The notes: generated by a model from the letters alone, not told the origin. 32,000 nucleotides of DNA from Geotalea uraniireducens Rf4 (GCF_000016745.1 NC_009483.1:2940001-2972000); one strand, 5' to 3'. Counted from the stretch's first letter, positions 1 through 25,161 are shown. A program made the numbers and translations.

Positions 1-2
1 CC

Positions 3-1097
3 GGCATGTCCACCGTCAAATCATTGCAGATGGAACCGGTGCTGGAGAAGCGCTACGGCGACTACATGGCCTCTTATCTGGCAGCAGGGTTCTCCACCCG
101 CCAGCTCTCCAACACCTACAATGTAATAGCCAATGCCCTCGAACAATTGATGACCTTCTCCATCCTGATCGTTGGGGCCTTGCTGGTCATGAAAAACGAC
201 GGCTTCACCATCGGTCGACTGGTCGCCTTCCAGATGTTTGCCGGCCGGATGAGTCAGCCGATGCTGCGGCTGGTGGGGTTATGGCAGGAGTTCCAGCAGG
301 CTAATATTGCGGTCAAGCGCCTGGGTGACATCATGGATATGCCGATGGAACCCTATGCCCTGGTTCCAACAAGGAGCTCCTCCAGCCAGGGCGGCGTGGT
401 TGAACTGGCGGACTTAAGCTTTCGCTATTCGGAACAGCATCCCTTTCTCTACCGCAACCTCAACCTCACCTTCAAGGCAGGCCACCTGAGCCTGCTGATG
501 GGGCCATCCGGCTGCGGCAAGAGCACCCTGGCCAAACTGCTGCAAGGCTTTTACCTCCCCACCGACGGCCAGATCAGGATCGACGGCCGGGATATCCGCC
601 ACATGTCGGCCAATGAATTGCGCTCCATTTTTGGCGTCGTCCCCCAGGAAACGGTCCTCTTCTCCGGCACCATCTACGAAAACCTGAACCACGCCAACCC
701 CCATGCCACCTTCCAGGACATCGTCACCGCCTGCCGCCAGGCCGAGATCCATAGCGTGATTGAAGGGCTCCCGCAAGGCTACCAAACGGAAATCGGCGAA
801 CAGGGTGTAGGGCTCTCTGGCGGACAACGGCAGCGGGTTGCCATCGCCCGGGCACTGCTCAAGCGCCCCCGCATCCTCATCTTCGATGAAGCCACCTCCA
901 ACCTGGATCAGCAGACCGCCGAGCACTTTGCCGCAACGGTCAACCAGCTGAAGGGAAAGGTATCGATGATTTTCATCACCCATCAACTGCCCAAGGGGCT
1001 GCAGGTGGATGATGTGTTCAGGTTTGGTCAGCAGCAGAGCCAGCCGCAGATGATGGAGGTGGTTGGGGAGGAGAAGCGGGATGGGGGAGATGAGTGA
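3..1097 (+). CDS. Type I secretion ABC transporter permease/ATPase (HlyB family), 5'-truncated by the window edge
   Basis: Walker [13 protein letters not shown] signature LSGGQRQRVAIARAL, Walker B ILIFDEATSNLD and H-loop ITHQL follow a hydrophobic TMD segment. The frame is open back to position 3. An HlyD gene and an RTX substrate lie in the same locus. Confidence 0.9.
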   Translation, partial: GMSTVKSLQMEPVLEKRYGDYMASYLAAGFSTRQLSNTYNVIANALEQLMTFSILIVGALLVMKNDGFTIGRLVAFQMFAGRMSQPMLRLVGLWQEFQQANIAVKRLGDIMDMPMEPYALVPTRSSSSQGGVVELADLSFRYSEQHPFLYRNLNLTFKAGHLSLLMGPSGCGKSTLAKLLQGFYLPTDGQIRIDGRDIRHMSANELRSIFGVVPQETVLFSGTIYENLNHANPHATFQDIVTACRQAEIHSVIEGLPQGYQTEIGEQGVGLSGGQRQRVAIARALLKRPRILIFDEATSNLDQQTAEHFAATVNQLKGKVSMIFITHQLPKGLQVDDVFRFGQQQSQPQMMEVVGEEKRDGGDE

Positions 1098-1134
1098 GGC
1101 AGTTTCTCTGCAATGATATGAAAAGGAGAAATGA

Positions 1135-1581
1135 ATGTACAAAAAGAAAATCATTTCAATCGCATTTTTTGTCTTGTTCCTTATGTCTTCATACTTCTGT
1201 TTTGCCACCGAAAATGAGTACGTGACTGAATGGATGCCGAGTCGCCAATTTCAGTCTACCTTCGACAGAATGGCAGATAATCGATTCTATACACATTTTG
1301 TGGAGGGAAGAACAATGAATGGAGCAATTCAATACCGTGCAGAGTTCCGGCCATTATTCAAGGAAATGAAAAGATGGTATTCGTTCCATGGGATGTCGGA
1401 TGAGTGGTATGCAAGGCGAAAGGCGGCTTTTGAAAAGGGAGGATTTAAGGAACTATATCACAACTTTTTCCTCGATTTTTCAGGGCAGCATGTTCATCAG
1501 GCATGCTGGGTCGAGCTTTTCGAATCTGCCGAGACACCTCCCCTGGAAAAGAAAGGCGTAAAGCCGTTGATATCATTCTAA
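1135..1581 (+). CDS. Hypothetical exported protein (148 aa)
   Basis: AAGGAG Shine-Dalgarno 5 nt upstream of the ATG. N-terminal signal-peptide-like segment KKKIISIAFFVLFLMSSYFCFA. No family recognised. AT-richer than neighbouring genes. Confidence 0.55.
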   Translation: MYKKKIISIAFFVLFLMSSYFCFATENEYVTEWMPSRQFQSTFDRMADNRFYTHFVEGRTMNGAIQYRAEFRPLFKEMKRWYSFHGMSDEWYARRKAAFEKGGFKELYHNFFLDFSGQHVHQACWVELFESAETPPLEKKGVKPLISF

Positions 1582-1599
1582 ACGGAAAGGAACTCTATA

Positions 1600-2250
1600 A
1601 TGTACATTCAGGTAACCACAAAATGCAATATGCGCTGCGGTCATTGCTGTTATGCCTGTGAACCAGGCAAGGGCGAACATATGCCATTCGAGGTAATTGC
1701 GGAGGTTCTTGCACGATGGGGAAAGAAAATTCTTGATGACAATCAATGGATTGTTATCGGTGGAGGTGAACCAACCTTGCACCCTGATTTTTGGAAAATC
1801 ATAAGCCATGCGCTTTCCTATGGACCTGTTTGGGTTGCTACCAATGGTTCCAATACGGAAGACGCCCTTACGTTGTGCAGAATGGCGAAGCGGGGGGTCC
1901 TTCGGGGGGTATTGAGCCGCGACAAGTGGCATGAACCAATTGATCCCGTTGTTGTCGAAACATTCATGGCTGGTTTGGTTGAACAAGAGTTCGGTTACTG
2001 GACTAATGATCCGAAAAGCTTTGATAGTCGGGAAATCAGGACAGTTAAGAACCCCTATATTGGAGGGCATGCCAAGGCAGGTTTGGGCGGTTGTCCATGT
2101 CGAGGTGTGCATATAAAGCCGGACGGCAACATTTATTCGTGTGGGTGTGAGACAGCGGTTCAGATTGGCACGGTCACAGATGGAATCGCTGAGAAGTATC
2201 AGTGCGTAAGTCTTTATGATGGTTGTTATAAAGAATGGATTGGCAATTAG
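1600..2250 (+). CDS. Small radical SAM enzyme (216 aa) with a C-terminal Cys-rich auxiliary-cluster-like motif
   Basis: CX3CX2C motif at residues 9-16 (CNMRCGHC). GGEPTLHP SAM-binding motif. C-terminal GGCPCRG...YSCGCE cysteine cluster resembling a SPASM/twitch-type motif. Confidence 0.85.
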   Translation: MYIQVTTKCNMRCGHCCYACEPGKGEHMPFEVIAEVLARWGKKILDDNQWIVIGGGEPTLHPDFWKIISHALSYGPVWVATNGSNTEDALTLCRMAKRGVLRGVLSRDKWHEPIDPVVVETFMAGLVEQEFGYWTNDPKSFDSREIRTVKNPYIGGHAKAGLGGCPCRGVHIKPDGNIYSCGCETAVQIGTVTDGIAEKYQCVSLYDGCYKEWIGN

Positions 2251-2306
2251 TGACTATGATTTCTGATACTGCATTGCTTTATCTGTGATCCGTAAGGAGG
2301 TTAAAA

Positions 2307-2876
2307 ATGAAAATTCGAATTAAGTTGATCAGTTACATTGTTATACTGCTTGTTTGTTATGTTAGCTCTTTATCAGTATTTGGCGATCAAGCAAACCCAA
2401 ATCATGGGAAAACGCAGAGTTATCCTTTGACTCCTGAGGGTGTTGTAGAGGCTTACTGCCTTGAATCTTTCAATGGAGCAGGATTGAGTTCAGATACTTG
2501 GGTGAAAATACAAAAATACACCGTATGGGAAGATGGCCCTGGATGGGATACAGCTGTCGTGGTTTCAAATTACAAAATAACAAAAATAAGAGAGTCTTCG
2601 AATACAGCCGAAATAAAAGTTGAATATGAAATTATTGCTGATCTTCCAGCAGATATAAGAGGGTTTAAATTGACAACCGATAGGTTGTCAGTGGCTTTCC
2701 TGTATAAATTGATTAAACAAGAAGGTCACTGGAAAATAAAATCACCCCAGGAGCCACCTCACATTTCAATATCAGCCACAATAGATAAGTTGAATAACTA
2801 TATTTCAGTAAAAAGAGATGCTAGAACAATTAATAATATTAGATCAATTATATATTATCTAAACAATAAAAAATAA
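2307..2876 (+). CDS. Hypothetical exported protein (189 aa), very AT-rich
   Basis: AAGGAGG Shine-Dalgarno. N-terminal hydrophobic signal segment LISYIVILLVCYVSSLSVFG. No family recognised. Lies immediately upstream of the NlpC/P60-like head of the giant gene. Confidence 0.55.
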   Translation: MKIRIKLISYIVILLVCYVSSLSVFGDQANPNHGKTQSYPLTPEGVVEAYCLESFNGAGLSSDTWVKIQKYTVWEDGPGWDTAVVVSNYKITKIRESSNTAEIKVEYEIIADLPADIRGFKLTTDRLSVAFLYKLIKQEGHWKIKSPQEPPHISISATIDKLNNYISVKRDARTINNIRSIIYYLNNKK

Positions 2877-2900
2877 CTTTGACAATAGGAGATTTTACTT

Positions 2901-3320
2901 ATGGGCAATAATGTAATAATCAATGCTAAAAATAAATATGGTAATGGTGGTTATGATTATGGTTATGGTGGTAATGGGACAAAAGATACTGATCGTAATG
3001 GAAAATTGGATATAGATTGTTCTCACTTGGTAAACGATGCACTCCAACAGTCTGGATATGATATACCGTATATGACAACCGGCGAAATGAGGGGATCAAA
3101 AGGAAATAAATATTTTGATAACGTGTCCCCCGATGATGTTAGACCGGGTGATATTATCGTTTTTAAAGGGCATACCGGAGTTGTTGAAAGTTATGACCCT
3201 GAAACAAATACCGGAAAGTTCTTTGGGTCTCAGTCCAAAGGGCCAGCAACAACAGAATTTGGCACGGATACAATAAAAGGGTGGGATAAACCATTTAAGA
3301 TTCTGCGACCAAAAGGAGAT
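2901..3320 (+). other. NlpC/P60-like (papain-fold) cysteine peptidase/amidase domain of the giant protein
   Basis: DCSHLV motif (Cys40) and PGDIIVFKGHTGVV (His91) match the NlpC/P60 Cys-His arrangement (DCSG[FL]V ... GD[LI]VFF..HVGIY). Not verified with an HMM. Confidence 0.65.
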
Positions 3321-6300
3321 GATCCTGATCCTGGTCCTGGTCCTGGTCCTGGTCCTGGTCCTGGTCCTGGTCCTGGTCCTGGTCCTGGTCCTGGTCCTGG
3401 TCCTGGTCCTGGTCCTGGTCCTGGTCCTGGTCCTGGTCCTGGTCCTGGTCCTGGTCCTGGTCCTGGTCCTGGTCCTGGTCCTGGTCCTGGTCCTGGTCCT
3501 GGTCCTGGTCCTGGTCCTGGCCCTGGTCCGAGTCCGGGTCCAAGACCGCGTCCGACCCCAGGCCCGACCCCGGGTCCGAGTATACCCAATAATTATCAGC
3601 CACCCCGTGATCCACTGGTTGTTGACCTGGACCGCGATGGTGTTGAAACGGTCGGCATAGGCTCCCGTGTCATGTTCGATCATAACAACGATCGAATTGC
3701 TACCACTACCGGCTGGATCAAGTCCGATGACGGCCTTCTTGCGCGTGATATCAACGGCAACGGTAAAATCGATTCCGGACTAGAGTTGTTTGGTGACCAG
3801 ACGAAGCTGAGTAATGGTCTTACTGCCTCTAACGGCTTCAGCGCCCTGAGGGATCTGGATGCCAATAACGACGGTAAATTCGACCCCAACGATCCAGCCT
3901 TCGGCGAACTCAGAATCTGGCGCGACCTCAACCAGGACGGCAATTCCCAGGCAGAAGAACTTACCACCCTCTCAGACGCAGGTGTTGCCTATATCGACCT
4001 AGCGGCTGTCAACCGCAATGTCTGGCAGAACGGGAACACCATAGCATCAGAGAGTACACTTACTAAGGAAGACGGCTCTACCGCTACAATAGCAGAGGTG
4101 AACCTTGCCAACAATCCCGCGGACAGCCGTTTTGTCGATACAGTGACAGTTTCTGATGCTGCCATGGCACTTCCGGCACTGCAAGGTTCCGGTAAAGTGC
4201 GTGACCTGCAAGAGGCTGCAACCCTCTCTCCCGCTCTCCAGGAAGTGTTGACACGCTACAGCGCAGCTACGACACGAGCGGAGCAGTTGGCGTTGCTGGA
4301 CGAGCTTCTCCTTACCTGGGCCGATACTTCCGGTATGTCCAAATCCCTTGAGGAACGTGATCCTGCAGCATACAGGGTTGAATATCTGTCATTCGGAAAT
4401 ATACGCAGGAGCGACCATCTGGTTAAAAATACCGCAGGTGGGATTACCTCTGGAACAGTACAAAACGCCGCTGACCCCCTTATCGATGAAACGTATCGCG
4501 GACTGATCGATACCTGGAATAACCGGATTCATATCCTAGAGTCTTTCTATGGCAGCTATTTCTTTGCTGTGCCCGGACAAGCACAGGAAGGAAGCGGCGC
4601 AAGAACCGGTATGTGGGTAGATTACACTGGTAGCACGGCCCTAAATGCTGCGAACAAAAACAAACCTGCCCTAGCGATCAACTATGCGCAGCCTCAACTC
4701 GATATGCTGGGCCAGGATTATCAAGCACTCAGGCAAACGGTGTACGATGGTCTCATTTTACAAACCCGTATGAGAATGTATCTCGAAATTATTGACACTA
4801 CCACAACCTATACTGATACCTATTCGGACATTGACATCTATGATGATTCCTACACTTATACCAATACTTATTCCGGCTCAGATCCAGACATCAAACCAGA
4901 AACCGCGATCGGTTACACTTTCGATGTGACCCGCCTTACCCAAGCATTCGTGGATAAAATTGATGCCGATCCGATTAACGGCATTACCGACCTTATAGAA
5001 TTCAACAGATGCACTAAGGGTCTTCTTGCCGATACCCCGTGGGACGGCGCAACCCTTCTGGAAAATAAGATTCGTTCGCTGCCCATAACGCCGGAACTCC
5101 AGGCCCTCTATCAGGAGTTCAATGTACGGTTCAACGGTATCCAAGGGGGAAACGGCGACGACATTATTCTAGGTGACGATCAGAGTCGCACCATTTACGG
5201 CGGCAACGGCAATGACACGCTCTTTGGAGGAGGCGGAAACGAGATGCTGGTTGGCGGAAACGACAACGATATCATTTCCGGCGGGGCGGGGGACGACCAA
5301 CTTAGGGGCGAGGCGGGTGATGACCAGTACATCTTCGGACGGGGAAGCGGAAATGACAACATAGTCGACGGTCAGGGACGCAACAGTATCCTTTTCTCCG
5401 GCCTCAATCCGGGCGATATCACCGTAACCACACCGAACAGCTATAACGATGACTTCGTCTTTAGCATTAAGGACACGGGAGAAACTCTGCATATTGCAGG
5501 AGGGTGGAACTGGTATTGGTACGAAAATACTTCCATTAACCGCTTCATTTTCGCCGATGGGACGGTCTGGAACAAAGAGAACGCCATTAATGCGGCGACG
5601 TCCTATCCAACGGAAGGCGATGACCTGATCATTGGCAGCCGCCTGACCGATTCTATTGATGGGTTAGGTGGGAATGATACGATAATCGGTCGCAGCGGGG
5701 ATGACGTCATTGACGGGGGCGCCGGCGACGATCTTCTCATCGGTTCCGCTTATGCCTACAACGATTATTATACAGGAGCGCAGCGAATAAATGCCACCGT
5801 CGTCGAGGCCAACGGCAACGACATCTACTATTTCGGCCGCGGCTCCGGCCGCGATACCATTATCGACGGCGACGATACCCAAAACACAGATCGACTCAGG
5901 TTCTTTGAGGACGTTGCTCCCTCTGACATCGCCGTTAGCCGCAATAACGACGACCTGATCCTCACCATCAAGGACACCGGCGACAGCGTCACCATCCGCA
6001 ATCACTTTCTGGAAAATTACCCCGGCGCACCCGAGCATCACGACTACGAGGTGGAATTAATCGAATTCGCCGACGGAACCAAGTGGACCTGGAACACCCT
6101 CCGCGACATGCTGCTGACCGGAACGGACGGCGCGGACACCATTATCGGCTACCGCCAGGACGACGCCATCAGCGGTGGCGCGGGGAACGATTACATCGAC
6201 GCCCGAAGCGGCAACGACGTGATCTCCGGTGGTGACGGCAACGATACCATCTCTGCCGGGCTGGGGGACGACATCATAGACGGCGGCACGGGCGATGACA

Positions 6301-9300
6301 CCATCTACGGCACGGACAGCCATTACTACGATGTTGCCTACGATGCACCGCGAAACGATAACGACACCTACCTGTTCGGTTGGGGCGACGGCCACGACAC
6401 CATTTACAACCGGAACGAGAGCCTGATCAGCAGCGACACAATCAGGTTCAAGGATGGGATCACTGCGAGCGACGTCAGGTTCGAGGGGGTCCTGGGCTAC
6501 AACGAGGACCTGCGCATCGTTCTGGGCGACGGTACAGACAGCATCACGGTGAAGAATTGGTTCGCCAGCGCTTATTACCAGATAGCTCGCATGGAGTTCA
6601 GCGACGGGACGGTGCTGGATGCGGCCTATGTAGCAAGCCACCTGGTCAAGGAGGGTACGGCGGGTAACGACGTCATCTTGGGAAGCCGCCAGAGCGAGAC
6701 CATTTCCGGCTACGCTGGCGACGACACGCTTTACGGCGGGGATGGCAACGACCGACTGGACGGGGGGTCCGGCAATGACATGCTCGCTGGCGGCTACGGC
6801 AACGACACTTACCTCTTCGGTCGCGGCGATGGCCACGATACGGCCTATGAAGGATTCGGCAACGGTTACTATTGGGTCAACTCACCCGATGACGCGATAG
6901 AGTTCAAGGCCGATGTGCTACCGGAAGATGTGATCGTCCGGCGTTTGGGCAACGACATGCTGCTTACCATCAAGGGGAGCGATGATCAACTGACGGTCAA
7001 GGACACCTTCAATGACTATAACGAGAGCAATCGCATCGAACAGGCGCGCTTCGCAGACGGAACGATCTGGGATTATACAACCCTCCTGACACTGGCCCTG
7101 CAAGGGACATCCGACGACGATATCCTGGAGGGCGGAGCGGGGAACGATGTGCTGGATGGAGGGGCCGGAAACGATCTCCTGAGGGGCAGGGATGGAGGGG
7201 ATACCTATCGCTTCGGTCGTGGCTATGGCAACGACGTGATCGAGGAGAGCGGCTGGGGTGGAGTCGATACAGTCGAGTTCCAGGCCGGCATTATCCCGAG
7301 CGATCTCACATTTACTATCGATACGAACGGTGCTCTGTTGATCACCATTAAAGGGAGCGGAGACAGCCTTCGGTTGAGCAACGGCACATATAATATCGAA
7401 CGTTATGTCTTCAGTAACGGAACCACTCTCACTTCGGCCGACATAAACAGGCTGGCTGCCACCCTCCCCAGCGCCGAAAGTATCGTCGGCACAGCAGGGG
7501 ACGACATCTTGGTGGGGAGTGACATCAACAGCACCATCCTTGGGCTTGAAGGCAACGATGTGCTGAGCGGGGCTGACGGCGACGATTGGCTGGAGGGAGC
7601 TGCCGGCAACGATACGCTGGCGGGTAACATGGGTGACGACAATCTCTACGGCGGCGACGGGGACGACGTCCTGAATGGTGGAAGTGGACGCGACTATATC
7701 GAAGCCGGCAACGGCGCAAACGTTATCCGTTTCGAGCAGGGGAGCGGTGTTGACTTTGTCCGGACGCGGCTGGCCGACGGCCAGGCCGATACCATTGAGT
7801 TCGGCGCAGGGATTACCTCGGCCGACCTCCAGGTGCAACTGGGGAATCAACGTTATTGGGATATCCAGCCTGGTGACAGCGGTTATGCGACACTGGTTGT
7901 AGGAACTGGTGACGACGCCTTCCGGATCGAGGTCGACGGCTGGTCCACCGATATCTCCCGTTCCTCTGTCCAGCGGTTCCGCTTCAACGATGGGACCGAG
8001 CTGTCGCTAGAGCAGGTCATAGCCATGAACGACGGCGGTATTGCAGGGTGGCAGTCCGGTTTCGACGGCGACGACATCCTGGTGGGAAGCAATGCGGATG
8101 ATGACATCAACGGCTATGACGGCAACGATGCCATCCGAGCCCGCGCCGGCAACGATTATCTAAATGGTGGCGCCGGCAGCGACCTGATGGACGGCGGCAG
8201 CGGCAACGATTACTTCTATGCCGGTTCAGGGAGCGACGTGCTGGCGGGCGGTAGAGGGGATGATACCCTTATCGGGTCTTCAGGGGAAGATACCTACCTC
8301 TTCAACCTTGGTGACGGCAACGATATCGTCGAAGACAACTGGGACGGCGGCAGAAAGACTATATCCTTTGGTGTGGGGATCGTTCCCGATGCTGTTTCTG
8401 CCATGATGGACGAATATGGCAACCTGCGGCTTTTGGTTGATGGCGGCGTCGGAGGCAGCCTCACGCTGTTACGCTGGTTCCAGCAGGACCGACTCACTAT
8501 GCAGGAACCGCTGACAGTCGAAAGGGTGCAATTCGTGGCCGCCGACGGCAGTGTCAGGATATACGACCTGGCAGGACTTGTGCGGGGTGTGGCCCCCTTG
8601 CTGTCTTCATCCACCTTTACCTCGCCGGTTGCTCTGTTCGCCGATGCGGCCTCCAACGACATTACCCTCGCGGCTCTGCCGGCAGATGGTGACGCGGCGG
8701 TGGCCTATGCCCAGAGCGGCAACCTGTTCGGCACAGCCTCCTATGGTGCCTCATCTGTCCCAACCGACGGCGACGACAGGCTCATGGGGACCGAGTGGGG
8801 CGACAGCCTGGAGGGCGGAGCTGGGAATGATCTTGTCTACGGCCTCGATGGTGATGACTACCTGGATGGCGGCAGTGGCCATGACCGGATAGATGCCGGA
8901 GCGGGCAATGATGCCATTTATGGAGGCAGCGGCAATGATCTGATCATGGCCGGAGAGGGCGATGATTTCGTCCATGCCGGGACAGGCAATGACATCGCCT
9001 ACGGGGGCCTGGGGAACGATACCTTTGTCTTCAACGCCGGCGACGGCCTTTTGACCATCGAGCAGGATTACATGGAGTATGCCGGCGGGGGTGAGTACGG
9101 TGGCGATTTGCCCATGTTTGCGAGTTTTGCTAGCTATGGGGGAGACTACGGCGGCGGTTATGGTGGCGGCACAGAGAGCAACGTGCTCAGCTTCGGGGTA
9201 GGTATTACCCTTTCCGATCTCAGGTTCTCCGAACGGGACGGCTATCTGATCATCGACATCCCCTCCACCGGAGACCAGGTGAGGCTTGCGGGTTACAATC

Positions 9301-12300
9301 CGGACAGCCCAACCCTGACCGACGTCGTGGATAGCTATGTATTCGCCGACGGCAGCGTGGCTACCCCGCAGGACATCCTCGACGCAGGGCTATCCTCGGT
9401 GGGAGCGGAAGGAGACGATTACTTCACCGGTACGGCGGGTAACAACATTGTGGAAACCGGAGGGGGAAATGACTACCTCGTCGGCGGATTCGGAAACGAC
9501 CGTCTTATGGGTGGAAGCGGGGACGATACCTATGAATTCAACCTCGGCGATGGGGTGGATACCATCGTGGACTTTAGTTCCCCCGGCATGGAGAACAGTG
9601 TCTATTTCGGCTACGGCATATCCCCTGACTCCATTTGGACCGAGGTCGAAAATGGCGCACTGGTGCTGAGGGTGGGTGACGGTGGCGACGCCATCCGGTT
9701 CGAGGGTTTCGATCCCAATATACCGGACATGCCGCAGCCGGTGGGGCGCTTCGATTTCTGGGACGGCTCAAGCATGAGCTTTTCCGACCTGCTCAGCCGT
9801 GGATTCGAGATAGTCGGCACGCCGGAGCAAGATACGCTCATCGGCACTTCCGGTGACGACAGGATTCGTGGGCTTGCCAGCGATGATCTACTCAAAGGCA
9901 ACGCCGGTGACGACACCTATCTATTCCAGGCAGGCGATGGGGTTGACTCCATCGACGACGTCTCCCGACCGGGAGAATGGAACACCGTCGTGCTCCCGGA
10001 CGGCATGGCTCCCTGGGAAGTTTACCTTACCCACGACCCGGAGAAAGGAGAACTAGTCCTGAAAAGATGGGGTTCTGACGACGAGATCAGGATGACCGGG
10101 TTTGACCGGTTGGATCCCTTCGGCAACCGGGCGGTGGAATATTTTCAGTTTGGACAGAACGGGCAGATTTTCTCCTATGACGAGTTGCTCAACTTGAACG
10201 GATTTGAAATCAGGGGAACCGACGGCAACGATACCCTGCTGGGAACCGCAACGTACGACTATATTCGCGGAGGTGACGGCGACGATCTGATCATCAGCGG
10301 CACCGGTGGCGACTATCTTCGCGGAACTGGCGGTAACGATACCTATGTGTTCAATCGTGGAGATGGTGAAGTGGAGATAAGTGACTTTCTGGAAGAAGGC
10401 ATCGGCAACGTGCTCCGCTTCGGTCCCGGCATCACGCCGGAAGACTTGCGCAGACACCTTCGATTTGAGGATGGTTATTTTATCATCGCCTTCGACAACG
10501 GCGACACCATTTATCTTGATGGTTTCGATCCCAATGACGTGGACAACAGCCCTCGATCAGTGGACACCTTTGCCTTCGACGACGGCACGACTCTTTCCTT
10601 CGCTGAACTGGCACGCTACACGTTTGTAGTCGAGGGAGACAACCTCGACAACCTGCTGACAGGGACGAATCTGGACGACCGGCTCTACGGCTACGACGGC
10701 TCGGACAATCTGGACAGTGGCACCGGAGAGGATGTCCTCACCGGCGGGACCGGTACAGATGTCCTTCTTGGCGGCGGCGGTCGAGACGCTTATATCTTTA
10801 ACCTCGGCGATGGCGTAGATACCATAACAGATACCGCCGAAAACGGTATAGGCAATATCCTCAGTTTCGGCCAGGGAATTACCATCAACGACCTTTCCCT
10901 CTCGCTGACCGGAACGACTTTGACCATCGGTTACGGTGCCTACGGTGATGCCGTCATCATTGAAAATTTCGATCCAACCGGACTCAATGGAACCACGGTT
11001 ATCGACACCTTCGAATTCTCCGACGGCAGCGCCATCAGCTACCGGGAACTGGTCAACCATGCTCCCGTGGCGGCAGAGCCGCTACCAGACCAGATCGCTA
11101 CCCAGGACCAGCCCTTTGTCTTCCAGTTGCCGGAAACCACCTTCAGCGATGCCGACGGCGACCAGTTGACCTATCGCCTCTCGGTGTCCGGCTATGAAAC
11201 CCCGTCGGACTGGCTTTCCTTCGACCCGGCAACCCGCACCATCAGCGGCACACCAGGCAACTCGGATGTCGGAGCGCTGACAGTGACGGTGTCTGCAATC
11301 GATCCGGTAGGGGCCACGACCGGCCAATCCTTTATCCTGAACGTGGAAAATGTCAACGATGCCCCGGTAGTCACCGCGCCGTTTACCGACCAGCTTGCCG
11401 TGGAGGACCAAACCTTTGAGTTGATGCTCCCGCCCGGTTTGTTCGCTGATATCGACGCAGGAGATTCCTTGACCCTTTCCGCCACACTGGCAGACGGTTC
11501 GGCGCTGCCGTCCTGGCTTAATTTCGATGCTGCCACCGGAACCTTCACCGGCACCCCCGACAACAGTAACATTGGCAAGCTGCAGTTGTCCGTAACCGCT
11601 ACCGACCAGTCAGGTGCTAATGTCACAGCTGCTTTCGCCCTTGAGGTAGTCAACACCAACGATGCACCGATGGTTGTTGACGCTATTCCCGCACAGACCG
11701 CACTGGAAGACAGCAATTTCAGCTTCACGCTGCCTGCCACGGCCTTCAACGACATTGACGCCGGTGACGCCCTGACGCTCTCCGCCGCACTATCCGACGG
11801 TTCTACCCTGCCGGCATGGCTGCAGTTCGATGCTGCAACCGGAACCTTCGCCGGCACGCCGGGAAACGATCAGGTCGGCAACCTGAATATTACGGTTACC
11901 GCCACGGACCGAGCCGGAACGACCGCCGGCAGCAGCTTCGCCCTCACTGTCCTTAACACCAATGACACACCGGTAACGGTAACACCGCTGACGGCACAGA
12001 ACGTCGTCGAAGATCAGACCTTCAGCTACCAGATCCCCGCCGATACCTTCAAGGACATCGACAGCTGCGACAGTTTGACCCTCTCCGCCACGCTGGCGGA
12101 CGGTTCGGCTTTGCCGTCATGGCTTTCGTTCGACGCACCAACCGGTATGCTGACCGGCACCCCCGGCAACGACCAGGTGGGAACCGTGAACCTTTCGGTA
12201 ACGGCCACCGATCTGTCCGGCGCAACCATCTCTACCGGACTCAGCCTGACCGTGGACAATGTCAACGACGCACCGGTAGTGACCGGCGCCATCACCGACC

Positions 12301-13697
12301 AGATTGCCCAGGGAGGCCAGCCATTCAGCCTCGCCATCCCCACCAACCTGTTCAGCGACGTAGATAAGGGCAACATCCTTACCATTACCGCAAACAGTAG
12401 CGACGGCACCAACCTGCCTGCCTGGCTGACCTATGACCAGGTAAGCGGCATCCTGTCCGGCACACCTGACAGTTCCGCAATCGGCAGCTATGGTGTAAAA
12501 CTGACCGCCACCGACCAATCCGGCTCACAGGTCGACACTTCCTTCAACATTAGCGTAACCAGTGTGCCCGCCGGCAACAGCGCACCAGTAGTAACACCGG
12601 ATACAGCCGAACTCATAGAAGATCATTGCCCCCCCTATGTGACAGGCAACGTCCTTGCCAACGACAGTGATCCGGATGCCGAAGACAGCCTCACTGTTGC
12701 CGACCCGGGCTTTGTGCGGGGCGAGTATGGCTACCTGGGGCTCTCCAGTGATGGCAAGTACGGATATATGGTCAATAACCGGTCCTATGACGTGCAGTCA
12801 CTGGGACGCACCGCCCAACAGGTGGAACATTTCAGCTACACCGTCACCGACGGCGAGGCAGAAGTTGCCTCTTCCCTCGACATCACCATCAAGGGCACCA
12901 ACGATGCCCCAGTGGTGGCCGAGCACCTGTCCGACCAGCGCGTCAAGAATAACAGGGCCTTCAGCTTCGCCATCGACTCCGACAGTTTTGTCGACATCGA
13001 TAAGGGAGATGCTCTGACCTACACTGCCACTCTGGCCGATGGCAAGGCACTGCCGGACTGGCTGAAGTTCAATGATAAAACCGGTATTTTCTCCGGAACC
13101 GCTCCCAAGAATGCGGGCTACCTGGATATCAAGGTCACCGCCACCGACAGAGTTGAAGCCACCGGCAGCACAGAAGGCAGCCTCTCCGTTTCCGACACCT
13201 TCGAGATTAGCTTCGGCAAAAGCAGGAAGGGGTCATCATGCCGTGACGAGGACGACCATAAGGACAAATTGGACTGGATGAAAAAGGCTGGATCTGATCG
13301 ACATGAAAATGAACGGGATAGCTACAGGTCCGACCATGACGATGACCGTGACATCCGACGCAAGGATGATCATTCGGCATCGACCTCGAAAGAGTACCTT
13401 GACAGCAACCAGCTTGATGACTACCTGCAGGAGGTTGATCAGCCCTCTCCCGGAACCGACCGCGAGATTGCCGCACGCTGGCAGGCAGTCAGTGATGCGT
13501 TAAAGCAGGAACTAGCCGATTTCGACAACGACTTCGGGAACCATCGCAAACAATCCGGCGACTTCTCCTCCATGAATTATGACCACAGCTTCGGCTTTGG
13601 CAGGGGCATTGCCGATAACGGCCTGCTGACCGCCGGCAGCGGTACCGACCTGAAGGACTTCAAGGGTCTGAAGGAAGGGATGCGGAGATTGGGATAA
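2901..13697 (+). CDS. Giant (3598 aa) RTX / cadherin-like Ca-binding protein, presumed T1SS substrate, with an NlpC/P60-like N-terminal domain
   Basis: Single uninterrupted ORF. It holds many GGxGxD nonapeptide runs, repeated RTX-associated beta modules ending in F[AS]DGT, tandem cadherin/He_PIG-like repeats (LP...F.D.D.GD.LTYSA.L.DGS.LP.WL.FD..TGT..GTP), a VCBS-like segment and a non-repetitive C-terminus. It is flanked by HlyB and HlyD genes. Confidence 0.92.
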   Translation: MGNNVIINAKNKYGNGGYDYGYGGNGTKDTDRNGKLDIDCSHLVNDALQQSGYDIPYMTTGEMRGSKGNKYFDNVSPDDVRPGDIIVFKGHTGVVESYDPETNTGKFFGSQSKGPATTEFGTDTIKGWDKPFKILRPKGDDPDPGPGPGPGPGPGPGPGPGPGPGPGPGPGPGPGPGPGPGPGPGPGPGPGPGPGPGPGPGPGPGPGPGPSPGPRPRPTPGPTPGPSIPNNYQPPRDPLVVDLDRDGVETVGIGSRVMFDHNNDRIATTTGWIKSDDGLLARDINGNGKIDSGLELFGDQTKLSNGLTASNGFSALRDLDANNDGKFDPNDPAFGELRIWRDLNQDGNSQAEELTTLSDAGVAYIDLAAVNRNVWQNGNTIASESTLTKEDGSTATIAEVNLANNPADSRFVDTVTVSDAAMALPALQGSGKVRDLQEAATLSPALQEVLTRYSAATTRAEQLALLDELLLTWADTSGMSKSLEERDPAAYRVEYLSFGNIRRSDHLVKNTAGGITSGTVQNAADPLIDETYRGLIDTWNNRIHILESFYGSYFFAVPGQAQEGSGARTGMWVDYTGSTALNAANKNKPALAINYAQPQLDMLGQDYQALRQTVYDGLILQTRMRMYLEIIDTTTTYTDTYSDIDIYDDSYTYTNTYSGSDPDIKPETAIGYTFDVTRLTQAFVDKIDADPINGITDLIEFNRCTKGLLADTPWDGATLLENKIRSLPITPELQALYQEFNVRFNGIQGGNGDDIILGDDQSRTIYGGNGNDTLFGGGGNEMLVGGNDNDIISGGAGDDQLRGEAGDDQYIFGRGSGNDNIVDGQGRNSILFSGLNPGDITVTTPNSYNDDFVFSIKDTGETLHIAGGWNWYWYENTSINRFIFADGTVWNKENAINAATSYPTEGDDLIIGSRLTDSIDGLGGNDTIIGRSGDDVIDGGAGDDLLIGSAYAYNDYYTGAQRINATVVEANGNDIYYFGRGSGRDTIIDGDDTQNTDRLRFFEDVAPSDIAVSRNNDDLILTIKDTGDSVTIRNHFLENYPGAPEHHDYEVELIEFADGTKWTWNTLRDMLLTGTDGADTIIGYRQDDAISGGAGNDYIDARSGNDVISGGDGNDTISAGLGDDIIDGGTGDDTIYGTDSHYYDVAYDAPRNDNDTYLFGWGDGHDTIYNRNESLISSDTIRFKDGITASDVRFEGVLGYNEDLRIVLGDGTDSITVKNWFASAYYQIARMEFSDGTVLDAAYVASHLVKEGTAGNDVILGSRQSETISGYAGDDTLYGGDGNDRLDGGSGNDMLAGGYGNDTYLFGRGDGHDTAYEGFGNGYYWVNSPDDAIEFKADVLPEDVIVRRLGNDMLLTIKGSDDQLTVKDTFNDYNESNRIEQARFADGTIWDYTTLLTLALQGTSDDDILEGGAGNDVLDGGAGNDLLRGRDGGDTYRFGRGYGNDVIEESGWGGVDTVEFQAGIIPSDLTFTIDTNGALLITIKGSGDSLRLSNGTYNIERYVFSNGTTLTSADINRLAATLPSAESIVGTAGDDILVGSDINSTILGLEGNDVLSGADGDDWLEGAAGNDTLAGNMGDDNLYGGDGDDVLNGGSGRDYIEAGNGANVIRFEQGSGVDFVRTRLADGQADTIEFGAGITSADLQVQLGNQRYWDIQPGDSGYATLVVGTGDDAFRIEVDGWSTDISRSSVQRFRFNDGTELSLEQVIAMNDGGIAGWQSGFDGDDILVGSNADDDINGYDGNDAIRARAGNDYLNGGAGSDLMDGGSGNDYFYAGSGSDVLAGGRGDDTLIGSSGEDTYLFNLGDGNDIVEDNWDGGRKTISFGVGIVPDAVSAMMDEYGNLRLLVDGGVGGSLTLLRWFQQDRLTMQEPLTVERVQFVAADGSVRIYDLAGLVRGVAPLLSSSTFTSPVALFADAASNDITLAALPADGDAAVAYAQSGNLFGTASYGASSVPTDGDDRLMGTEWGDSLEGGAGNDLVYGLDGDDYLDGGSGHDRIDAGAGNDAIYGGSGNDLIMAGEGDDFVHAGTGNDIAYGGLGNDTFVFNAGDGLLTIEQDYMEYAGGGEYGGDLPMFASFASYGGDYGGGYGGGTESNVLSFGVGITLSDLRFSERDGYLIIDIPSTGDQVRLAGYNPDSPTLTDVVDSYVFADGSVATPQDILDAGLSSVGAEGDDYFTGTAGNNIVETGGGNDYLVGGFGNDRLMGGSGDDTYEFNLGDGVDTIVDFSSPGMENSVYFGYGISPDSIWTEVENGALVLRVGDGGDAIRFEGFDPNIPDMPQPVGRFDFWDGSSMSFSDLLSRGFEIVGTPEQDTLIGTSGDDRIRGLASDDLLKGNAGDDTYLFQAGDGVDSIDDVSRPGEWNTVVLPDGMAPWEVYLTHDPEKGELVLKRWGSDDEIRMTGFDRLDPFGNRAVEYFQFGQNGQIFSYDELLNLNGFEIRGTDGNDTLLGTATYDYIRGGDGDDLIISGTGGDYLRGTGGNDTYVFNRGDGEVEISDFLEEGIGNVLRFGPGITPEDLRRHLRFEDGYFIIAFDNGDTIYLDGFDPNDVDNSPRSVDTFAFDDGTTLSFAELARYTFVVEGDNLDNLLTGTNLDDRLYGYDGSDNLDSGTGEDVLTGGTGTDVLLGGGGRDAYIFNLGDGVDTITDTAENGIGNILSFGQGITINDLSLSLTGTTLTIGYGAYGDAVIIENFDPTGLNGTTVIDTFEFSDGSAISYRELVNHAPVAAEPLPDQIATQDQPFVFQLPETTFSDADGDQLTYRLSVSGYETPSDWLSFDPATRTISGTPGNSDVGALTVTVSAIDPVGATTGQSFILNVENVNDAPVVTAPFTDQLAVEDQTFELMLPPGLFADIDAGDSLTLSATLADGSALPSWLNFDAATGTFTGTPDNSNIGKLQLSVTATDQSGANVTAAFALEVVNTNDAPMVVDAIPAQTALEDSNFSFTLPATAFNDIDAGDALTLSAALSDGSTLPAWLQFDAATGTFAGTPGNDQVGNLNITVTATDRAGTTAGSSFALTVLNTNDTPVTVTPLTAQNVVEDQTFSYQIPADTFKDIDSCDSLTLSATLADGSALPSWLSFDAPTGMLTGTPGNDQVGTVNLSVTATDLSGATISTGLSLTVDNVNDAPVVTGAITDQIAQGGQPFSLAIPTNLFSDVDKGNILTITANSSDGTNLPAWLTYDQVSGILSGTPDSSAIGSYGVKLTATDQSGSQVDTSFNISVTSVPAGNSAPVVTPDTAELIEDHCPPYVTGNVLANDSDPDAEDSLTVADPGFVRGEYGYLGLSSDGKYGYMVNNRSYDVQSLGRTAQQVEHFSYTVTDGEAEVASSLDITIKGTNDAPVVAEHLSDQRVKNNRAFSFAIDSDSFVDIDKGDALTYTATLADGKALPDWLKFNDKTGIFSGTAPKNAGYLDIKVTATDRVEATGSTEGSLSVSDTFEISFGKSRKGSSCRDEDDHKDKLDWMKKAGSDRHENERDSYRSDHDDDRDIRRKDDHSASTSKEYLDSNQLDDYLQEVDQPSPGTDREIAARWQAVSDALKQELADFDNDFGNHRKQSGDFSSMNYDHSFGFGRGIADNGLLTAGSGTDLKDFKGLKEGMRRLG
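3330..3520 (+). repeat. Perfect hexanucleotide microsatellite (CCTGGT)31 encoding (Pro-Gly)n, inside the giant CDS
   Basis: Direct reading gives 31 consecutive identical CCTGGT units from 3330 to 3515, plus 5 further in-phase matching nucleotides (3516-3520). The first deviation is at 3521 (ggc codon). A degenerate Pro-rich tail with mixed codons runs to about 3585. Confidence 0.98.
5140..11056 (+). repeat. About a dozen tandem modules within the giant CDS, each an RTX nonapeptide run plus an RTX-associated beta domain
   Basis: Recurrent pattern GG.G.D.L.G...D.Y.F..G.G.D.I.D......D.I.F..GI...D......DL.I......D.[IL].[IV]..[WF]......IE.F.F.DGT. I counted 12 module ends by eye. Confidence 0.8.
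11057..12565 (+). repeat. Five tandem cadherin-like / putative Ig (He_PIG-type) repeats of about 95-100 aa
   Basis: Each repeat ends in V.N.ND.PV. DNA-level similarity is visible between repeats, e.g. gacggttcggc.ctgccgtc.tggct near 11490, 11795 and 12100. Confidence 0.8.
12577..12918 (+). other. VCBS-like segment of the giant protein
   Basis: NSAPVV...GNVLANDSDPD..DSLTV.......G.Y.Y.V........L......F.YTVTDG......L.ITI.GTNDAPV is the typical VCBS pattern. A sixth cadherin-like repeat follows (12919-13215). Confidence 0.6.
13216..13697 (+). other. Non-repetitive C-terminal region of the giant protein: charged D/H/R/K-rich stretch plus presumed T1SS secretion signal
   Basis: T1SS substrates carry an uncleaved C-terminal signal (established). 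No sequence consensus exists to confirm it here. Confidence 0.4.
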
Positions 13698-13730: not shown

Positions 13731-13787
13731 AGTCCCTTAGAAAAATTATTTGCATGTTTTTTGCGAAGAATTTTTCGTGAAGGGACT
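13731..13787 (+). terminator. Compound hairpin between the giant gene and the glycosyltransferase gene (possible attenuator)
   Basis: AGTCCCTT (13731-13738) pairs with AAGGGACT (13780-13787). An inner pair is GAAAAATT (13740-13747) with AATTTTTC (13769-13776). There is no clean 3' U-run. Confidence 0.3.
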
Positions 13788-13820
13788 TATCCCGTTCATA
13801 GGGGTTACGATGAGGAAACC

Positions 13821-15050
13821 ATGAGCCGTTTTTTGCTGGCATGGGCATTGGGTGGCAATTACGGCCATTTGGGTAAATTGGCACCACTGACGAGAGCACT
13901 CAAGGATAGTGGACATGATGTGGCCCTTGCCGTCAGGGATCTTTCCACTCTGGGGCAGTTCCTTGACCGTTCCGAGGCGACTTTTCTACAGGCGCCTGTT
14001 GACGCCCCCCCAAGATGGAGGCTACAGCCAGCGAGCTTTGCCGATATCCTTGAAGAAAGCGGTTTCGGCAATCCTGACCGGCTTGATGGGCTGGTACGAG
14101 GTTGGCACGGCCTCTTTGATCTCTACCGACCCGACGTGGTGGTGGCGGAATATGCGCCGTCAGCCGTATTTGCCGCTAAGCTGGCAGGTATACCCTGTCT
14201 GCGTATGGATACCGGCTTCGCTATTCCGCCGGAGATGAGCCCCTATCCCTGCTTCCGACCTTGGCTCAAGCTACGAAGGGAACAGCTGTTGGGAAAAGAG
14301 ATGAACATGCTGCAGGCCATGAACCAAGTTCGCAAGGACTATGGCCATTCTGCGCATGAGTATCTCTTTCAGGCAGTGCAGGCCAACCTGACCCTGCTGA
14401 CAACTGTGCCGGAGCTTGATCACTACCCGGCACGCAAGGGAGGTTGCTATATCGGCCCGCTGTTGAATCTGGACACAGGGCAGAATGTCCCCTGGCCTGG
14501 AGGAAATGGAAAGCGGATATTTGCCTACCTGCGCCCTTTTCCAGAACTTGGGCTGGTACTGGATGGGCTCAGGGACTGTGGCAGTCAAACCATTGCCGTG
14601 GTTCCCGGCATCGACCAGGAGCTTTGCGACAGGTATAGCGGCAGCAATCTTTCGATCACCAGCCAAACTGCGGCATTGCGGCCTATCCTGACCAAAGCGG
14701 ATCTGGTCGTTTCCCATACCGGCCATGGCCTGACATCGGCGGCACTGCTTGCAGGGGTACCGACATTGGCAATACCGACCCAGATCGAGCAGATGATGCT
14801 GATGAGAACCATCGAACGAATTGGTATAGGTATTGGTATCACCCCCAATGCACTACGGGCACATTTTCAGGAAGTCCTGCAAAAAACCCTTGCCGATCAA
14901 GAGATTACCCACCGAACACAAGAGATTGCAGCCAAGTACAGTCGGTATGATGAAAAGAGAACCTTGGCTCGTCTAATAAAAACCATTGAGCGACTGCCTG
15001 AAGCCATCAGAAACAGGCAGCCCGGCAAACAGGAGAAAATAAACAGATGA
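13821..15050 (+). CDS. GT-B fold glycosyltransferase (GT1 / UDP-glycosyltransferase-MGT-like)
   Basis: N-terminal GGNYGHLGKLAPLTRALKDSGHDVALA and C-terminal VSHTGHGLTSAALLAGVPTLAIPTQIEQ match GT1/Glyco_tran_28_C-type donor-binding motifs. The start is placed at the ATG at 13821, preceded by GAGGA. The track ORF starts at a TTG at 13761. Confidence 0.8.
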   Translation: MSRFLLAWALGGNYGHLGKLAPLTRALKDSGHDVALAVRDLSTLGQFLDRSEATFLQAPVDAPPRWRLQPASFADILEESGFGNPDRLDGLVRGWHGLFDLYRPDVVVAEYAPSAVFAAKLAGIPCLRMDTGFAIPPEMSPYPCFRPWLKLRREQLLGKEMNMLQAMNQVRKDYGHSAHEYLFQAVQANLTLLTTVPELDHYPARKGGCYIGPLLNLDTGQNVPWPGGNGKRIFAYLRPFPELGLVLDGLRDCGSQTIAVVPGIDQELCDRYSGSNLSITSQTAALRPILTKADLVVSHTGHGLTSAALLAGVPTLAIPTQIEQMMLMRTIERIGIGIGITPNALRAHFQEVLQKTLADQEITHRTQEIAAKYSRYDEKRTLARLIKTIERLPEAIRNRQPGKQEKINR

Positions 15051-22752: not shown

Positions 22753-22771
22753 CAGCTTCAAACACCAATCC

Positions 22772-22817
22772 GCCCGGGCAGGGTCCGCCACCGATTGCAC
22801 CTGCCCGGGCCTTTTTC
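22772..22817 (+). terminator. Intra-operon hairpin/attenuator after pstS
   Basis: Perfect 11-bp stem GCCCGGGCAGG / CCTGCCCGGGC (22772-22782 and 22800-22810), a 17-nt loop, then CTTTTTC. Confidence 0.6.
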
Positions 22818-22861
22818 TGCCGAAACTTTTATTACAACCGTTTCAACATTTCGTTACAAAC

Positions 22862-24675: not shown

Positions 24676-24727
24676 CAACCTGCCACGGAGACACAGAGAC
24701 ACGGAGAAAAACGAAAAATACAACATT

Positions 24728-25082: not shown

Positions 25083-25161
25083 TAGGCTCTTTGGGGCCTT
25101 TGCGGTTCAAAGGTTCTGATTCTATTTATACGTATTTCTGGCAAGAACAAAAGAGGTCTGA

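Follow-up and report, generated by a model that had tools for sequence, protein, structure and literature searches.

We analysed a stretch of 32,000 nucleotides (nt) from the genome of Geotalea uraniireducens Rf4 (GCF_000016745.1, NC_009483.1:2940001-2972000), referred to here as the window, in which a single giant gene occupies positions 2901..13697. All features described below between positions 6 and 16465 lie on the plus strand. The reading frame of this gene is unbroken and encodes a product of 3598 amino acids (aa). A ribosome-binding site (AGGAG, 2887..2891), read from the sequence, lies 9 nt before the ATG at 2901, and Met1 of the giant protein aligns with Met1 of stand-alone homologues of its N-terminal domain, hereafter the head. 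This head belongs to the NlpC/P60 family and is followed by a Pro/Gly linker, a self-processing module (SPM) of the kind known from FrpC, and a long RTX body. The gene is flanked by genes for an HlyB-type ATP-binding cassette (ABC) transporter and an HlyD adaptor of a type I secretion system (T1SS). A scan of positions 900-3400 for promoters and terminators returned nothing above shuffled expectation.

The head (aa 1-137; 2901..3311) is predicted to be a peptidoglycan endopeptidase toxin domain. The original prediction had described an NlpC/P60-like Cys-His peptidase and read its motifs correctly: DIDCSHLV places the cysteine at residue 40 and KGHTGV the histidine at residue 91. Its family assignment is supported by both profile and structure. 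The Pfam profile PF00877 (NLPC_P60) matches residues 18-92 with 32.4 bits (gathering cut-off 23; E 1e-7), while the CHAP profile stays below threshold (19.9 versus 26). An AlphaFold model of the head (predicted local distance difference test score, pLDDT, 77) was compared with the PDB by Foldseek, and the top 15 matches are all NlpC/P60 peptidoglycan endopeptidases (MepS, LytE, RipA/B/D), with template-modelling (TM) scores of ~0.56-0.61 and a best E value of 4e-4. In the model, Cys40 starts a helix (40-50) and His91 lies in a strand (91-99); both residues are invariant in the alignment of head homologues. Hydrolysis of peptidoglycan stem peptides is the activity we would predict. Queried against the PDB by sequence only, the head gave spurious Kelch and designed-repeat matches to the short segment VEAYDPET and a weak NlpC/P60 match (E 0.16), and we rely instead on the Pfam and fold results.

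Close relatives of the head are few. A search of a collection of 5.8 billion proteins yielded only five homologues, each about 200 aa long, stand-alone and 41-46% identical, which align with the head from Met1 to its Leu-Arg-Pro-Lys137; the C-terminal tail of about 60 residues that follows in the stand-alone proteins is lost in the giant. A profile search of 1.84 billion cluster representatives extended the set to 358 relatives in varied settings, including stand-alone proteins, the N-terminus of multi-enzyme proteins of 700-1100 aa, and internal positions after SLT-like domains. Relatives at the N-terminus of RTX giants are rare (P0174 and P0188). The stand-alone homologues P0002 (locus L001) and P0005 (locus L002) are encoded directly upstream of vgrG in type VI secretion system (T6SS) clusters.

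The gene preceding the giant, imm189 (2307..2876), encodes a Sec-signal protein of 189 aa that is a candidate cognate immunity protein for the head. Its sequence is 100% identical to that of a protein which NCBI assigns to G. uraniireducens. Its N-terminal signal peptide is plain, without the lipobox cysteine that some homologues have. The imm189 protein is 37% identical (E 4e-31) to the product of the gene directly upstream of P0002, and further homologues directly precede head homologues in the T6SS locus of P0005 and in the two-gene cassette of P0001 (contigs L088-L091). In L001 and L002 the pair stands directly upstream of vgrG, followed by more T6SS genes including tssE, tssF and tssG, and the third pair, the two-gene cassette, lies beside a ParE/Phd module. 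The imm homologues paired with heads carry signal peptides. From this arrangement, imm189 and the head look like an effector-immunity pair with a presumably periplasmic immunity protein; it is the conserved synteny that points to an immunity role.

The head is joined to the rest of the protein by a linker of 100 residues (K138-D237, aa 138-237; 3312..3611) that includes 46 Pro and 37 Gly, with an uninterrupted Pro-Gly run of 67 residues (aa 144-210). It holds the (CCTGGT)31 tract noted previously, whose perfect run we confirmed at 3330-3515; Tandem Repeats Finder reports 36.5 copies over 3323-3541 when imperfect copies are included. The G+C fraction at third codon positions (GC3) of the linker is 0.10-0.12, and the codons of the Pro/Gly tract all end in T. 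At silent sites the tract groups with the head.

The description of the gene as a compositional chimera, with an AT-rich head and a GC-rich body, was borne out. The four G+C counts made by hand for it are exact (22/60 at 2941-3000, 8/60 at 2821-2880, 30/60 at 3661-3720 and 41/60 at 6121-6180). The head (2901-3311) has a GC of 0.384 and a GC3 of 0.277, compared with a GC3 of 0.663 for the body. When all in-frame windows of 411 nt in the body were considered, their GC3 had a mean of 0.665, a standard deviation of 0.076 and a minimum of 0.46, and the head thus lies far beyond the gene's own variation. The switch, which had been placed at the Pro/Gly tract, falls between codons ~200 and 260, where the linker ends: windows of 60 codons stay at a GC3 of 0.10-0.33 as far as codon ~220 and reach 0.57-0.67 from codon 241 onward. 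The suggestion that a foreign head arrived together with its upstream genes stands for the adjacent gene only. The GC3 of imm189 (0.274) equals that of the head, whereas two genes further upstream, described below, are intermediate (0.48 for orf148 and 0.45 for a radical-SAM-like open reading frame, ORF). The head and its adjacent gene look like an imported unit. In all contexts seen (L001, L002, L088, L092, L004, L084), the head gene and the preceding gene are AT-rich relative to their surroundings; in L001, for example, their GC is 0.40 and 0.42 versus 0.58 for the contig. Since a GC3 near 0.25 is kept by imm in two lineages that are 22% diverged, low GC seems to be a lasting property of these cassettes and not just a trace of recent transfer.

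The linker runs directly into the SPM (PF26745, aa 238-414; 3612..4142), a family name taken from precomputed Pfam labels on homologues. Residues 238-412 match the nuclear magnetic resonance structure of the FrpC SPM (PDB 6SJW) over its full chain (E 7.9e-50, 173 bits), with 53% identity over 174 aligned residues. The alignment starts exactly at Pro238, which corresponds to FrpC Pro415, and the codons of Asp237-Pro238 (3609..3614) mark a predicted Ca2+-dependent autocleavage site, with the scissile Asp-Pro at the N-terminal edge of the module. We compared the two modules at the key residues listed for FrpC (PMC7078468). The equivalents of FrpC D414, P415, D419, D421, D423, G424, W451, D456, D478 and W519 are all kept, and the residues conserved here comprise D242, D244, D246, G247, E249, W272, D277, D283, E295, D299, W340, D342 and E353, covering the four Ca2+ sites and the Trp451/Trp519 pair of FrpC.

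In FrpC, the 177-residue SPM folds on Ca2+ binding and cuts Asp414-Pro415 at its own N-terminal edge, leaving an aspartic anhydride able to acylate a lysine, a chemistry called clip-and-link (PMC7078468). Cleavage has been shown for SPM homologues of several species, and the module accepts any protein on its N-terminal side (PMC12538545). By this precedent, Ca2+ should clip off the head and linker after type I secretion; the Pro/Gly linker would lead up to a programmed cleavage point, with residues 1-237 as the product. What the linker itself contributes is a matter of speculation: it may just let the head and the SPM fold independently, or serve as a leash after linking. The SPM, which like the immunity-like gene was absent from the original prediction, is the mechanistic centre of the locus. 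No second SPM copy and no orphan head-SPM fragment was found in the window.

The body begins with a conserved post-SPM region (aa 415-760; 4143..5180) that is 40-60% identical to other SPM-RTX proteins. Its GC3, measured over window positions 4000-5150 (codons ~361-740), is 0.42-0.55, compared with 0.57-0.67 for the SPM and 0.6-0.87 for the RTX blocks, which hints at a second, older recombination tract or at a different constraint. RTX nonapeptide blocks interleaved with HCBP-related domains extend over approximately 5200..10800 (PF00353 in 24 stretches, E 4e-92; PF06594 in 6 stretches, E 5e-80). They are followed at approximately 11100..13100 by He_PIG, cadherin-like, Big_9 and VCBS immunoglobulin (Ig)-like domains (PF05345 in 6 stretches, E 2e-112; PF17963, PF17803, PF17892; TIGR01965). 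The protein closes with a highly charged C-terminal tail (13100..13697), the last 260 aa containing 52 Asp/Glu and 37 Lys/Arg residues. T1SS secretion signals are C-terminal (PMC7078468), and the tail presumably contains a non-cleaved one, although no Pfam or NCBIfam T1SS C-terminal domain matches it. The last GGxGxD-type RTX motif is found at aa 2624 of 3598, with about 970 residues of Ig-like domains and charged tail beyond it, and the presumed location of the signal relative to the RTX repeats is atypical.

The secretion genes enclose the giant gene. The 3' part of the HlyB-type T1SS ABC transporter gene, cut by the window edge, lies at 6..1094 (PF00005, PF00664; TIGR01846 type_I_sec_HlyB, E 6e-98), and the HlyD-family T1SS periplasmic adaptor is encoded at 15047..16465 (TIGR01843, 335 bits versus a cut-off of 209; PF13437). 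Between the giant gene and hlyD, a gene for a GT-B-type glycosyltransferase (13761..15050; PF06722, EryCIII-like_C; PF13579, Glyco_trans_4_4; PF13528) belongs to the T1SS operon, and its 3' end overlaps the start of hlyD; the enzyme is a possible modifier of the RTX protein or of a partner. No gene for an outer-membrane factor and no T6SS gene was found among the ORFs scanned in the window, linkage to vgrG being confined to the stand-alone homologues P0002 and P0005.

Two further genes lie between the ABC transporter gene and imm189. The first, orf148 (1135..1581), encodes a small signal-peptide protein without a family match above threshold, and the second is the radical-SAM-like ORF (1600..2250), of 216 aa with a CGHCCYAC motif (PF04055, E 1.4e-10). 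Both are kept in L084 and L085 and could be relics of older cassettes. A radical SAM gene also precedes the SPM genes of L003, but the radical-SAM-like ORF of the window is unrelated to it, and we do not infer synteny between the two. Downstream of the T1SS cluster, on the minus strand, the window contains genes for an IS256/Mutator-family transposase (18938-20152) and an IS4-type DDE transposase (27059-28234), which stand on either side of a gene for a response regulator (20683-21360) and a pstSCAB-like operon for phosphate transport (21724-25920).

Comparison with the closest loci shows where the giant gene varies. The metagenome contig L084 is collinear with window positions 1-2896 (78% nt identity) through the ABC gene, orf148, the radical-SAM-like ORF and imm (83% aa identity), and its similarity ends 5 nt before the ATG of the giant gene. 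At 4410-5428 of this contig, LprI-like and Ivy-like genes, which belong to lysozyme-inhibitor families, come after the imm homologue, and the contig then ends, before its head. In locus L004, the ABC gene is shared (84% aa identity; 79% nt identity up to window position 1062) and is followed by two unrelated genes and then by a GH24 lysozyme head, with similarity returning at window position 3664, inside the SPM. The L004 head and its preceding gene are AT-rich, with GC3 values of 0.35 and 0.45 versus 0.83 for the ABC gene. The LprI-like and Ivy-like genes of L084 suggest stacked immunity genes against lysozyme-type heads such as that of L004.

The closest loci, L084 and L004, are without this head. 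Conservation of the head with the body across distant relatives, which would have counted against the original prediction, is not seen in a form that harms it. One distant relative, P0174, does carry an NlpC/P60 head on a homologous body, which is 40% identical to that of the window's giant over 2076 residues. Its locus, L092, is ordered ABC gene, gene for a membrane fusion protein (MFP), orf376 (with a signal peptide) and a giant gene for NlpC/P60-linker-SPM-RTX-He_PIG. Here the head and the upstream gene are again AT-rich outliers (GC3 0.28 for the head, 0.37 for orf376 and 0.77 for the ABC gene), and orf376 is unrelated to imm189. The stretch between the ABC gene and the SPM is thus a replacement hot spot in these alignments. 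We propose that the AT-rich segment records an exchange of cassettes by recombination, with one breakpoint immediately before the ATG of the head, or at some point ahead of that, and the other at the conserved SPM.

This variability extends across the family. Among 119 homologues of the post-linker region, 73 show a DP-x-LDLDGDG junction preceded by unrelated heads of 25-640 residues. The heads include GH24 lysozyme, M23 peptidase, SLT, glucosaminidase, Lipase_3, phospholipase A2 (PLA2)-like and DUF6973 domains, among others, and some are attached through Gly/Ser-rich linkers. A scan of one genome per species confirmed at least 485 SPM loci in Proteobacteria and beyond. Many of them contain 2-5 tandem head-SPM genes, and the arrays of L035 (5 copies) and L057 (4 copies) carry different heads. 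In L003, two truncated orphan head-SPM genes (384 and 745 aa), both ending in ..NLREGxADGYDCxERVAA, stand beside a remnant of the 3' end of an ABC gene, which looks like successive cassette displacement. When 91 heads of sampled loci were searched with Pfam, lipases, PLA2-like domains, M23 peptidases, lysozymes and SLT domains were found and most heads had no match; none of the 91 matched NLPC_P60. A tblastn search of 79 sampled genome loci likewise found no head of the window's type upstream of an SPM. Current annotation gives proteins of this kind no more than the label calcium-binding protein. A conserved carrier whose enzymatic tips vary, small secreted neighbours, orphans and domains shared with other secretion systems are the hallmarks of polymorphic toxins (PMC3482391).

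In some SPM copies, Ser-Pro (or Thr-Pro, or Cys-Pro) replaces Asp-Pro at the junction (L015, L030, L031, L043, L053, L059, L067, L071, L074, L078, L080 and L081; P0061, P0071 and P0174). No aspartic anhydride is possible in such copies, which may be non-cleaving or follow a different chemistry. P0174, the other NlpC/P60-headed giant, is thus among the proteins with a non-Asp-Pro junction.

What is observed here comprises the identities of the domains, an SPM whose cleavage motif is intact, the conserved gene pairing, the neighbouring T1SS genes, the boundary in composition and the polymorphism of heads at orthologous and homologous loci. Together these observations lead us to regard the giant as probably a T1SS-secreted RTX protein of the FrpC clip-and-link class with an exchangeable N-terminal toxin cassette, that is, a self-released peptidoglycan hydrolase acting as a T1SS polymorphic toxin. 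The cassette, imm189 plus the 137-residue head, would be best explained as drawn from the same gene pool as the stand-alone effector-immunity pairs beside T6SS vgrG genes. Of the two roles offered in the original prediction, this favours the cell-wall-degrading effector delivered on an RTX scaffold, on the strength of the SPM, the effector-immunity-like pairing and the enzymatic variety of the heads.

The mechanism that we infer would proceed in five steps. First, the adjacent HlyB/HlyD system would export the unfolded giant protein, C-terminus first. Outside the cell, Ca2+ would then fold the RTX blocks and subsequently the SPM. The SPM would cut Asp237-Pro238 and free residues 1-237 with a reactive C-terminal aspartic anhydride able to acylate a nearby amine. 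The freed hydrolase would attack the peptidoglycan of competitors and, finally, imm189 would guard the periplasm of the producer and its kin. Export, cleavage, enzymatic activity, immunity, the antibacterial role and the access of the head to its substrate are thus what this mechanism predicts.

Several observations weigh against this interpretation. A T1SS releases its substrate into the medium, and the freed 237-residue fragment has nothing like a domain for crossing the Gram-negative outer membrane, which leaves the route to periplasmic peptidoglycan unexplained. The targets may be Gram-positive or envelope-damaged cells, or entry may take place via the body or via clip-and-link. A toxin that bypasses the periplasm has, moreover, no obvious need of a periplasmic immunity protein, and imm189 may have merely travelled along. 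The imm189 protein has no Pfam or NCBIfam match, and its structure model, built from two sequences, is too poor for a fold search (pLDDT 57). The third member of the head's catalytic triad has candidates in the invariant Ser110, Gln111 and Ser112 of the strand that follows, but no definite assignment. In the SPM, the position of FrpC D579 is occupied by Glu399; the variants tested in FrpC are D579A, which abolishes cleavage, and D579N, which does not (PMC7078468). The published role of the SPM proteins FrpC and ApxIVA is host adhesion and virulence, not bacterial killing (PMC5233953, PMC7078468). Finally, secretion, cleavage, hydrolase activity and immunity are all predicted for this protein from its sequence.

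The history of the cassette also calls for caution. The imm189 gene and its low GC3 are common to L084, at a divergence about equal to that of the ABC gene, so that the cassette is not a very recent arrival and its AT-richness may be kept for another reason. The view of the AT-rich block as a very recent import is weakened by the same finding. AT-richness therefore marks membership of a mobile cassette pool and not a datable recent transfer.

The closest precedents for the architecture are FrpC and FrpA of Neisseria meningitidis and ApxIVA of Actinobacillus pleuropneumoniae, which share with the giant the SPM with an N-terminal-edge Asp-Pro, the large RTX protein and the adjoining T1SS. For FrpC, the likeness extends to a Sec-exported small protein encoded with the RTX gene: frpD, for a Sec-exported lipoprotein, shares the frpDC operon with frpC, and FrpD binds the clipped FrpC(1-414) with a dissociation constant of ~0.2 nM (PMC5233953). 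These parallels give weight to a different role, in which the giant is a covalent adhesin. By clip-and-link, the clipped fragment would become covalently bound to a surface (mineral-associated proteins, neighbouring cells or a host) and would be held on the producer by imm189, with the head serving mainly to bind peptidoglycan or cells. Adhesion is indeed the published model for FrpD and FrpC(1-414) (PMC5233953), deletion of the SPM in ApxIVA attenuates virulence, and the gene order of a Sec-exported small protein followed by an SPM-RTX gene mirrors frpDC. The conserved catalytic Cys and His are, however, left unexplained by a binding module, the heads of relatives are hydrolytic enzymes of many kinds, and the pairing of imm189 homologues with stand-alone heads in T6SS loci follows an effector-immunity logic. 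The signal peptide of imm189 also lacks the lipobox Cys. We consider this role improbable.

The giant also differs from FrpC. No enzymatic function is known for the head of FrpC (residues 1-414), whose role is described as host adhesion, whereas the head described here can be recognised as a peptidoglycan hydrolase from a family of effectors and is attached through a Pro/Gly linker encoded by a microsatellite. The protein encoded upstream has its homologues among the partners of T6SS-linked effectors and is not homologous to FrpD, and G. uraniireducens is a subsurface metal reducer and not a pathogen, unlike the bacteria that carry FrpC and ApxIVA. FrpC and FrpD themselves have been proposed as a T1SS effector-immunity pair by Bayer-Santos et al. 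2019 (PMC6759196). The same study describes Smlt3024 of Stenotrophomonas maltophilia, an experimentally demonstrated periplasm-acting antibacterial effector of an X-type type IV secretion system (T4SS) that is, according to its authors, homologous to N-terminal regions of large RTX proteins, and its inhibitor Smlt3025, which has a FrpD-like fold (PMC6759196). Smlt3024 differs from the head described here in its export by a T4SS with an XVIPCD signal and in having no NlpC/P60 domain. The S. maltophilia SPM locus L027 is not this published effector; it encodes a 2362-aa SPM-RTX giant.

Another possibility is that the hydrolase is directed at the producer or its kin for wall remodelling, acting on the population's own sacculi or on shed peptidoglycan in processes such as biofilm restructuring, autolysis with release of extracellular DNA, or nutrient scavenging, with imm189 as a regulator. 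The closest folds to the head, MepS and LytE, are housekeeping autolysins, and a periplasmic inhibitor would recall the control pairs LytE-IseA and MepS-NlpI found among the top PDB matches. Housekeeping hydrolases are not, however, exported by T1SSs on 3600-residue carriers, and both the polymorphism of the locus between close relatives and the status of the head as a compositional outlier speak against such a function. The link of the head's relatives to vgrG also argues against it, and we judge wall remodelling to be as improbable as adhesion.

Like the T6SS Tae/Tai-type pairs, the head is a Cys-His NlpC/P60 domain of ~140 residues preceded by a gene for a signal-peptide protein, and its closest full-length relatives (41-46% identity) lie directly upstream of vgrG. 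It differs from these pairs in being fused to an SPM-RTX carrier beside a T1SS, with loss of its tail, and in having its best PDB folds in MepS, LytE and Rip rather than Tae.

The other role in the original prediction, a periplasmic retention anchor, was not supported. There, the NlpC/P60 head would stay on the periplasmic side and engage the producer's peptidoglycan, the Pro/Gly segment would thread the TolC-like channel, and the RTX body would remain anchored at the surface, as in LapA and MpIBP. Like these adhesins, the giant is a very large T1SS substrate that combines Ig-like repeats with RTX blocks, and its N-terminal domain is of another kind than the body. The 100-residue linker, if extended, could span the T1SS conduit, the body has adhesin-like Ig and cadherin domains, and a periplasmic partner such as imm189 makes sense if the head is periplasmic. 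Fast-folding N-terminal domains can moreover stall T1SS export, as seen in work on LapA. The SPM with its intact Asp-Pro right after the linker would, however, sever such an anchor on meeting Ca2+, so that head and linker appear built for removal and not for holding the body. In place of a di-alanine LapG site, the N-terminal part of the protein has an enzyme and, after it, a module that cleaves itself: residues 1-367 contain no AA dipeptide and no LapG site, and a TAAG motif is missing as well. LapG and LapD were not found among the ORFs scanned in the 32-kb window, in which smaller ORFs were not all scanned, and they could be encoded in other parts of the genome. The RTX repeats occupy the centre of the protein and not its C-terminus. 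Homologous bodies bear lipases, lysozymes, M23 peptidases and other heads in the same place, often in tandem arrays, which fits toxins and not plugs, and the head's own relatives are stand-alone, effector-like proteins whose genes have an immunity-like neighbour and in two cases stand next to vgrG.

The relative speeds of secretion and cleavage bear on the same question. A T1SS moves its substrate at some tens of residues each second. Even the fastest SPM on record takes ~1 hour for 91% cleavage (PMC12538545), so that the last 237 residues should exit the cell before the cut, which speaks against a head left behind. In sum, we find a retention anchor still less probable than the two preceding alternatives.

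The least probable reading, and a very improbable one, is a non-functional accident, in which a recent illegitimate fusion left the head unexpressed or unexported: the strong compositional break, the hypermutable microsatellite at the junction and the lack of any record of the exact 3598-aa product in the protein collection would suit it, but the frame is open over 3598 codons, the ribosome-binding site is good and Met1 is aligned with that of homologues, slippage of a 6-nt repeat unit stays in frame, the same architecture occurs in P0174/L092, and the identical sequence is present in an independent sample (contig L087).

The proposed T1SS toxin can finally be compared with the known polymorphic toxins (CdiA-CT/CdiI, Rhs, MafB; PMC3482391). 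With these it shares a conserved stalk, variable tips, adjacent putative immunity genes, toxin domains common to several secretion systems, and AT-rich cassettes. Orphan or displaced cassettes are seen at related loci (the L003 orphans, the arrays of L035 and L057, and imm kept without this head in L084), whereas in the window orf148 and the radical-SAM-like ORF are the only candidates for them. It differs from them in its inverted polarity, with the toxin N-terminal and the immunity gene upstream, an arrangement expected from the C-terminal T1SS signal. The conserved junction is also different, being an autoproteolytic SPM and not a VENN, PxxxxDPxGL or comparable motif. Each component is known: the SPM from FrpC and ApxIVA, T1SS RTX proteins, and NlpC/P60 effectors with immunity proteins. 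In their survey, Zhang et al. 2012 mention the T1SS only as a route for RTX proteins (PMC3482391), and a survey of 2025 describes Min-Wnt toxin domains fused N-terminal to RTX repeats without noting the SPM (PMC12419801). In the searchable literature, outside which most subscription journals lie, we found neither an account in which the SPM forms the conserved junction in a family of N-terminally polymorphic T1SS toxins with upstream immunity genes nor one of an NlpC/P60 example. A broader version of the interpretation is tentative and, in our view, doubtful. In it, SPM-bearing RTX proteins including FrpC would be widespread T1SS polymorphic toxins of inverted polarity, which Ca2+-triggered self-cleavage at Asp-Pro would arm by releasing the toxin outside the cell, and the anhydride would staple the toxin, here on a long Pro/Gly leash, to amines of the target envelope such as lysines or those of peptidoglycan stem peptides.

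The biological purpose of the clip-and-link chemistry, and of FrpC itself, has been stated as unknown (PMC5233953). The Geotalea locus supplies what the Neisseria proteins lack, namely a head with a recognisable activity and a partner gene with homologues that travel with T6SS-linked effectors, and these make the proposal that an SPM releases a T1SS-delivered antibacterial toxin directly testable. The natural variety of linkers and SPMs, including the Ser-Pro variants, is relevant to protein engineering tools of the NeissLock type (PMC12538545). If the proposal is true, the T1SS would join the T4SS, the type V secretion system, the T6SS and the type VII secretion system as a carrier of polymorphic toxins, and the rule that the variable toxin takes the terminus away from the secretion signal would gain in generality. 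The hundreds of heads that precede SPMs and have no annotation would then constitute a catalogue of candidate new toxins.

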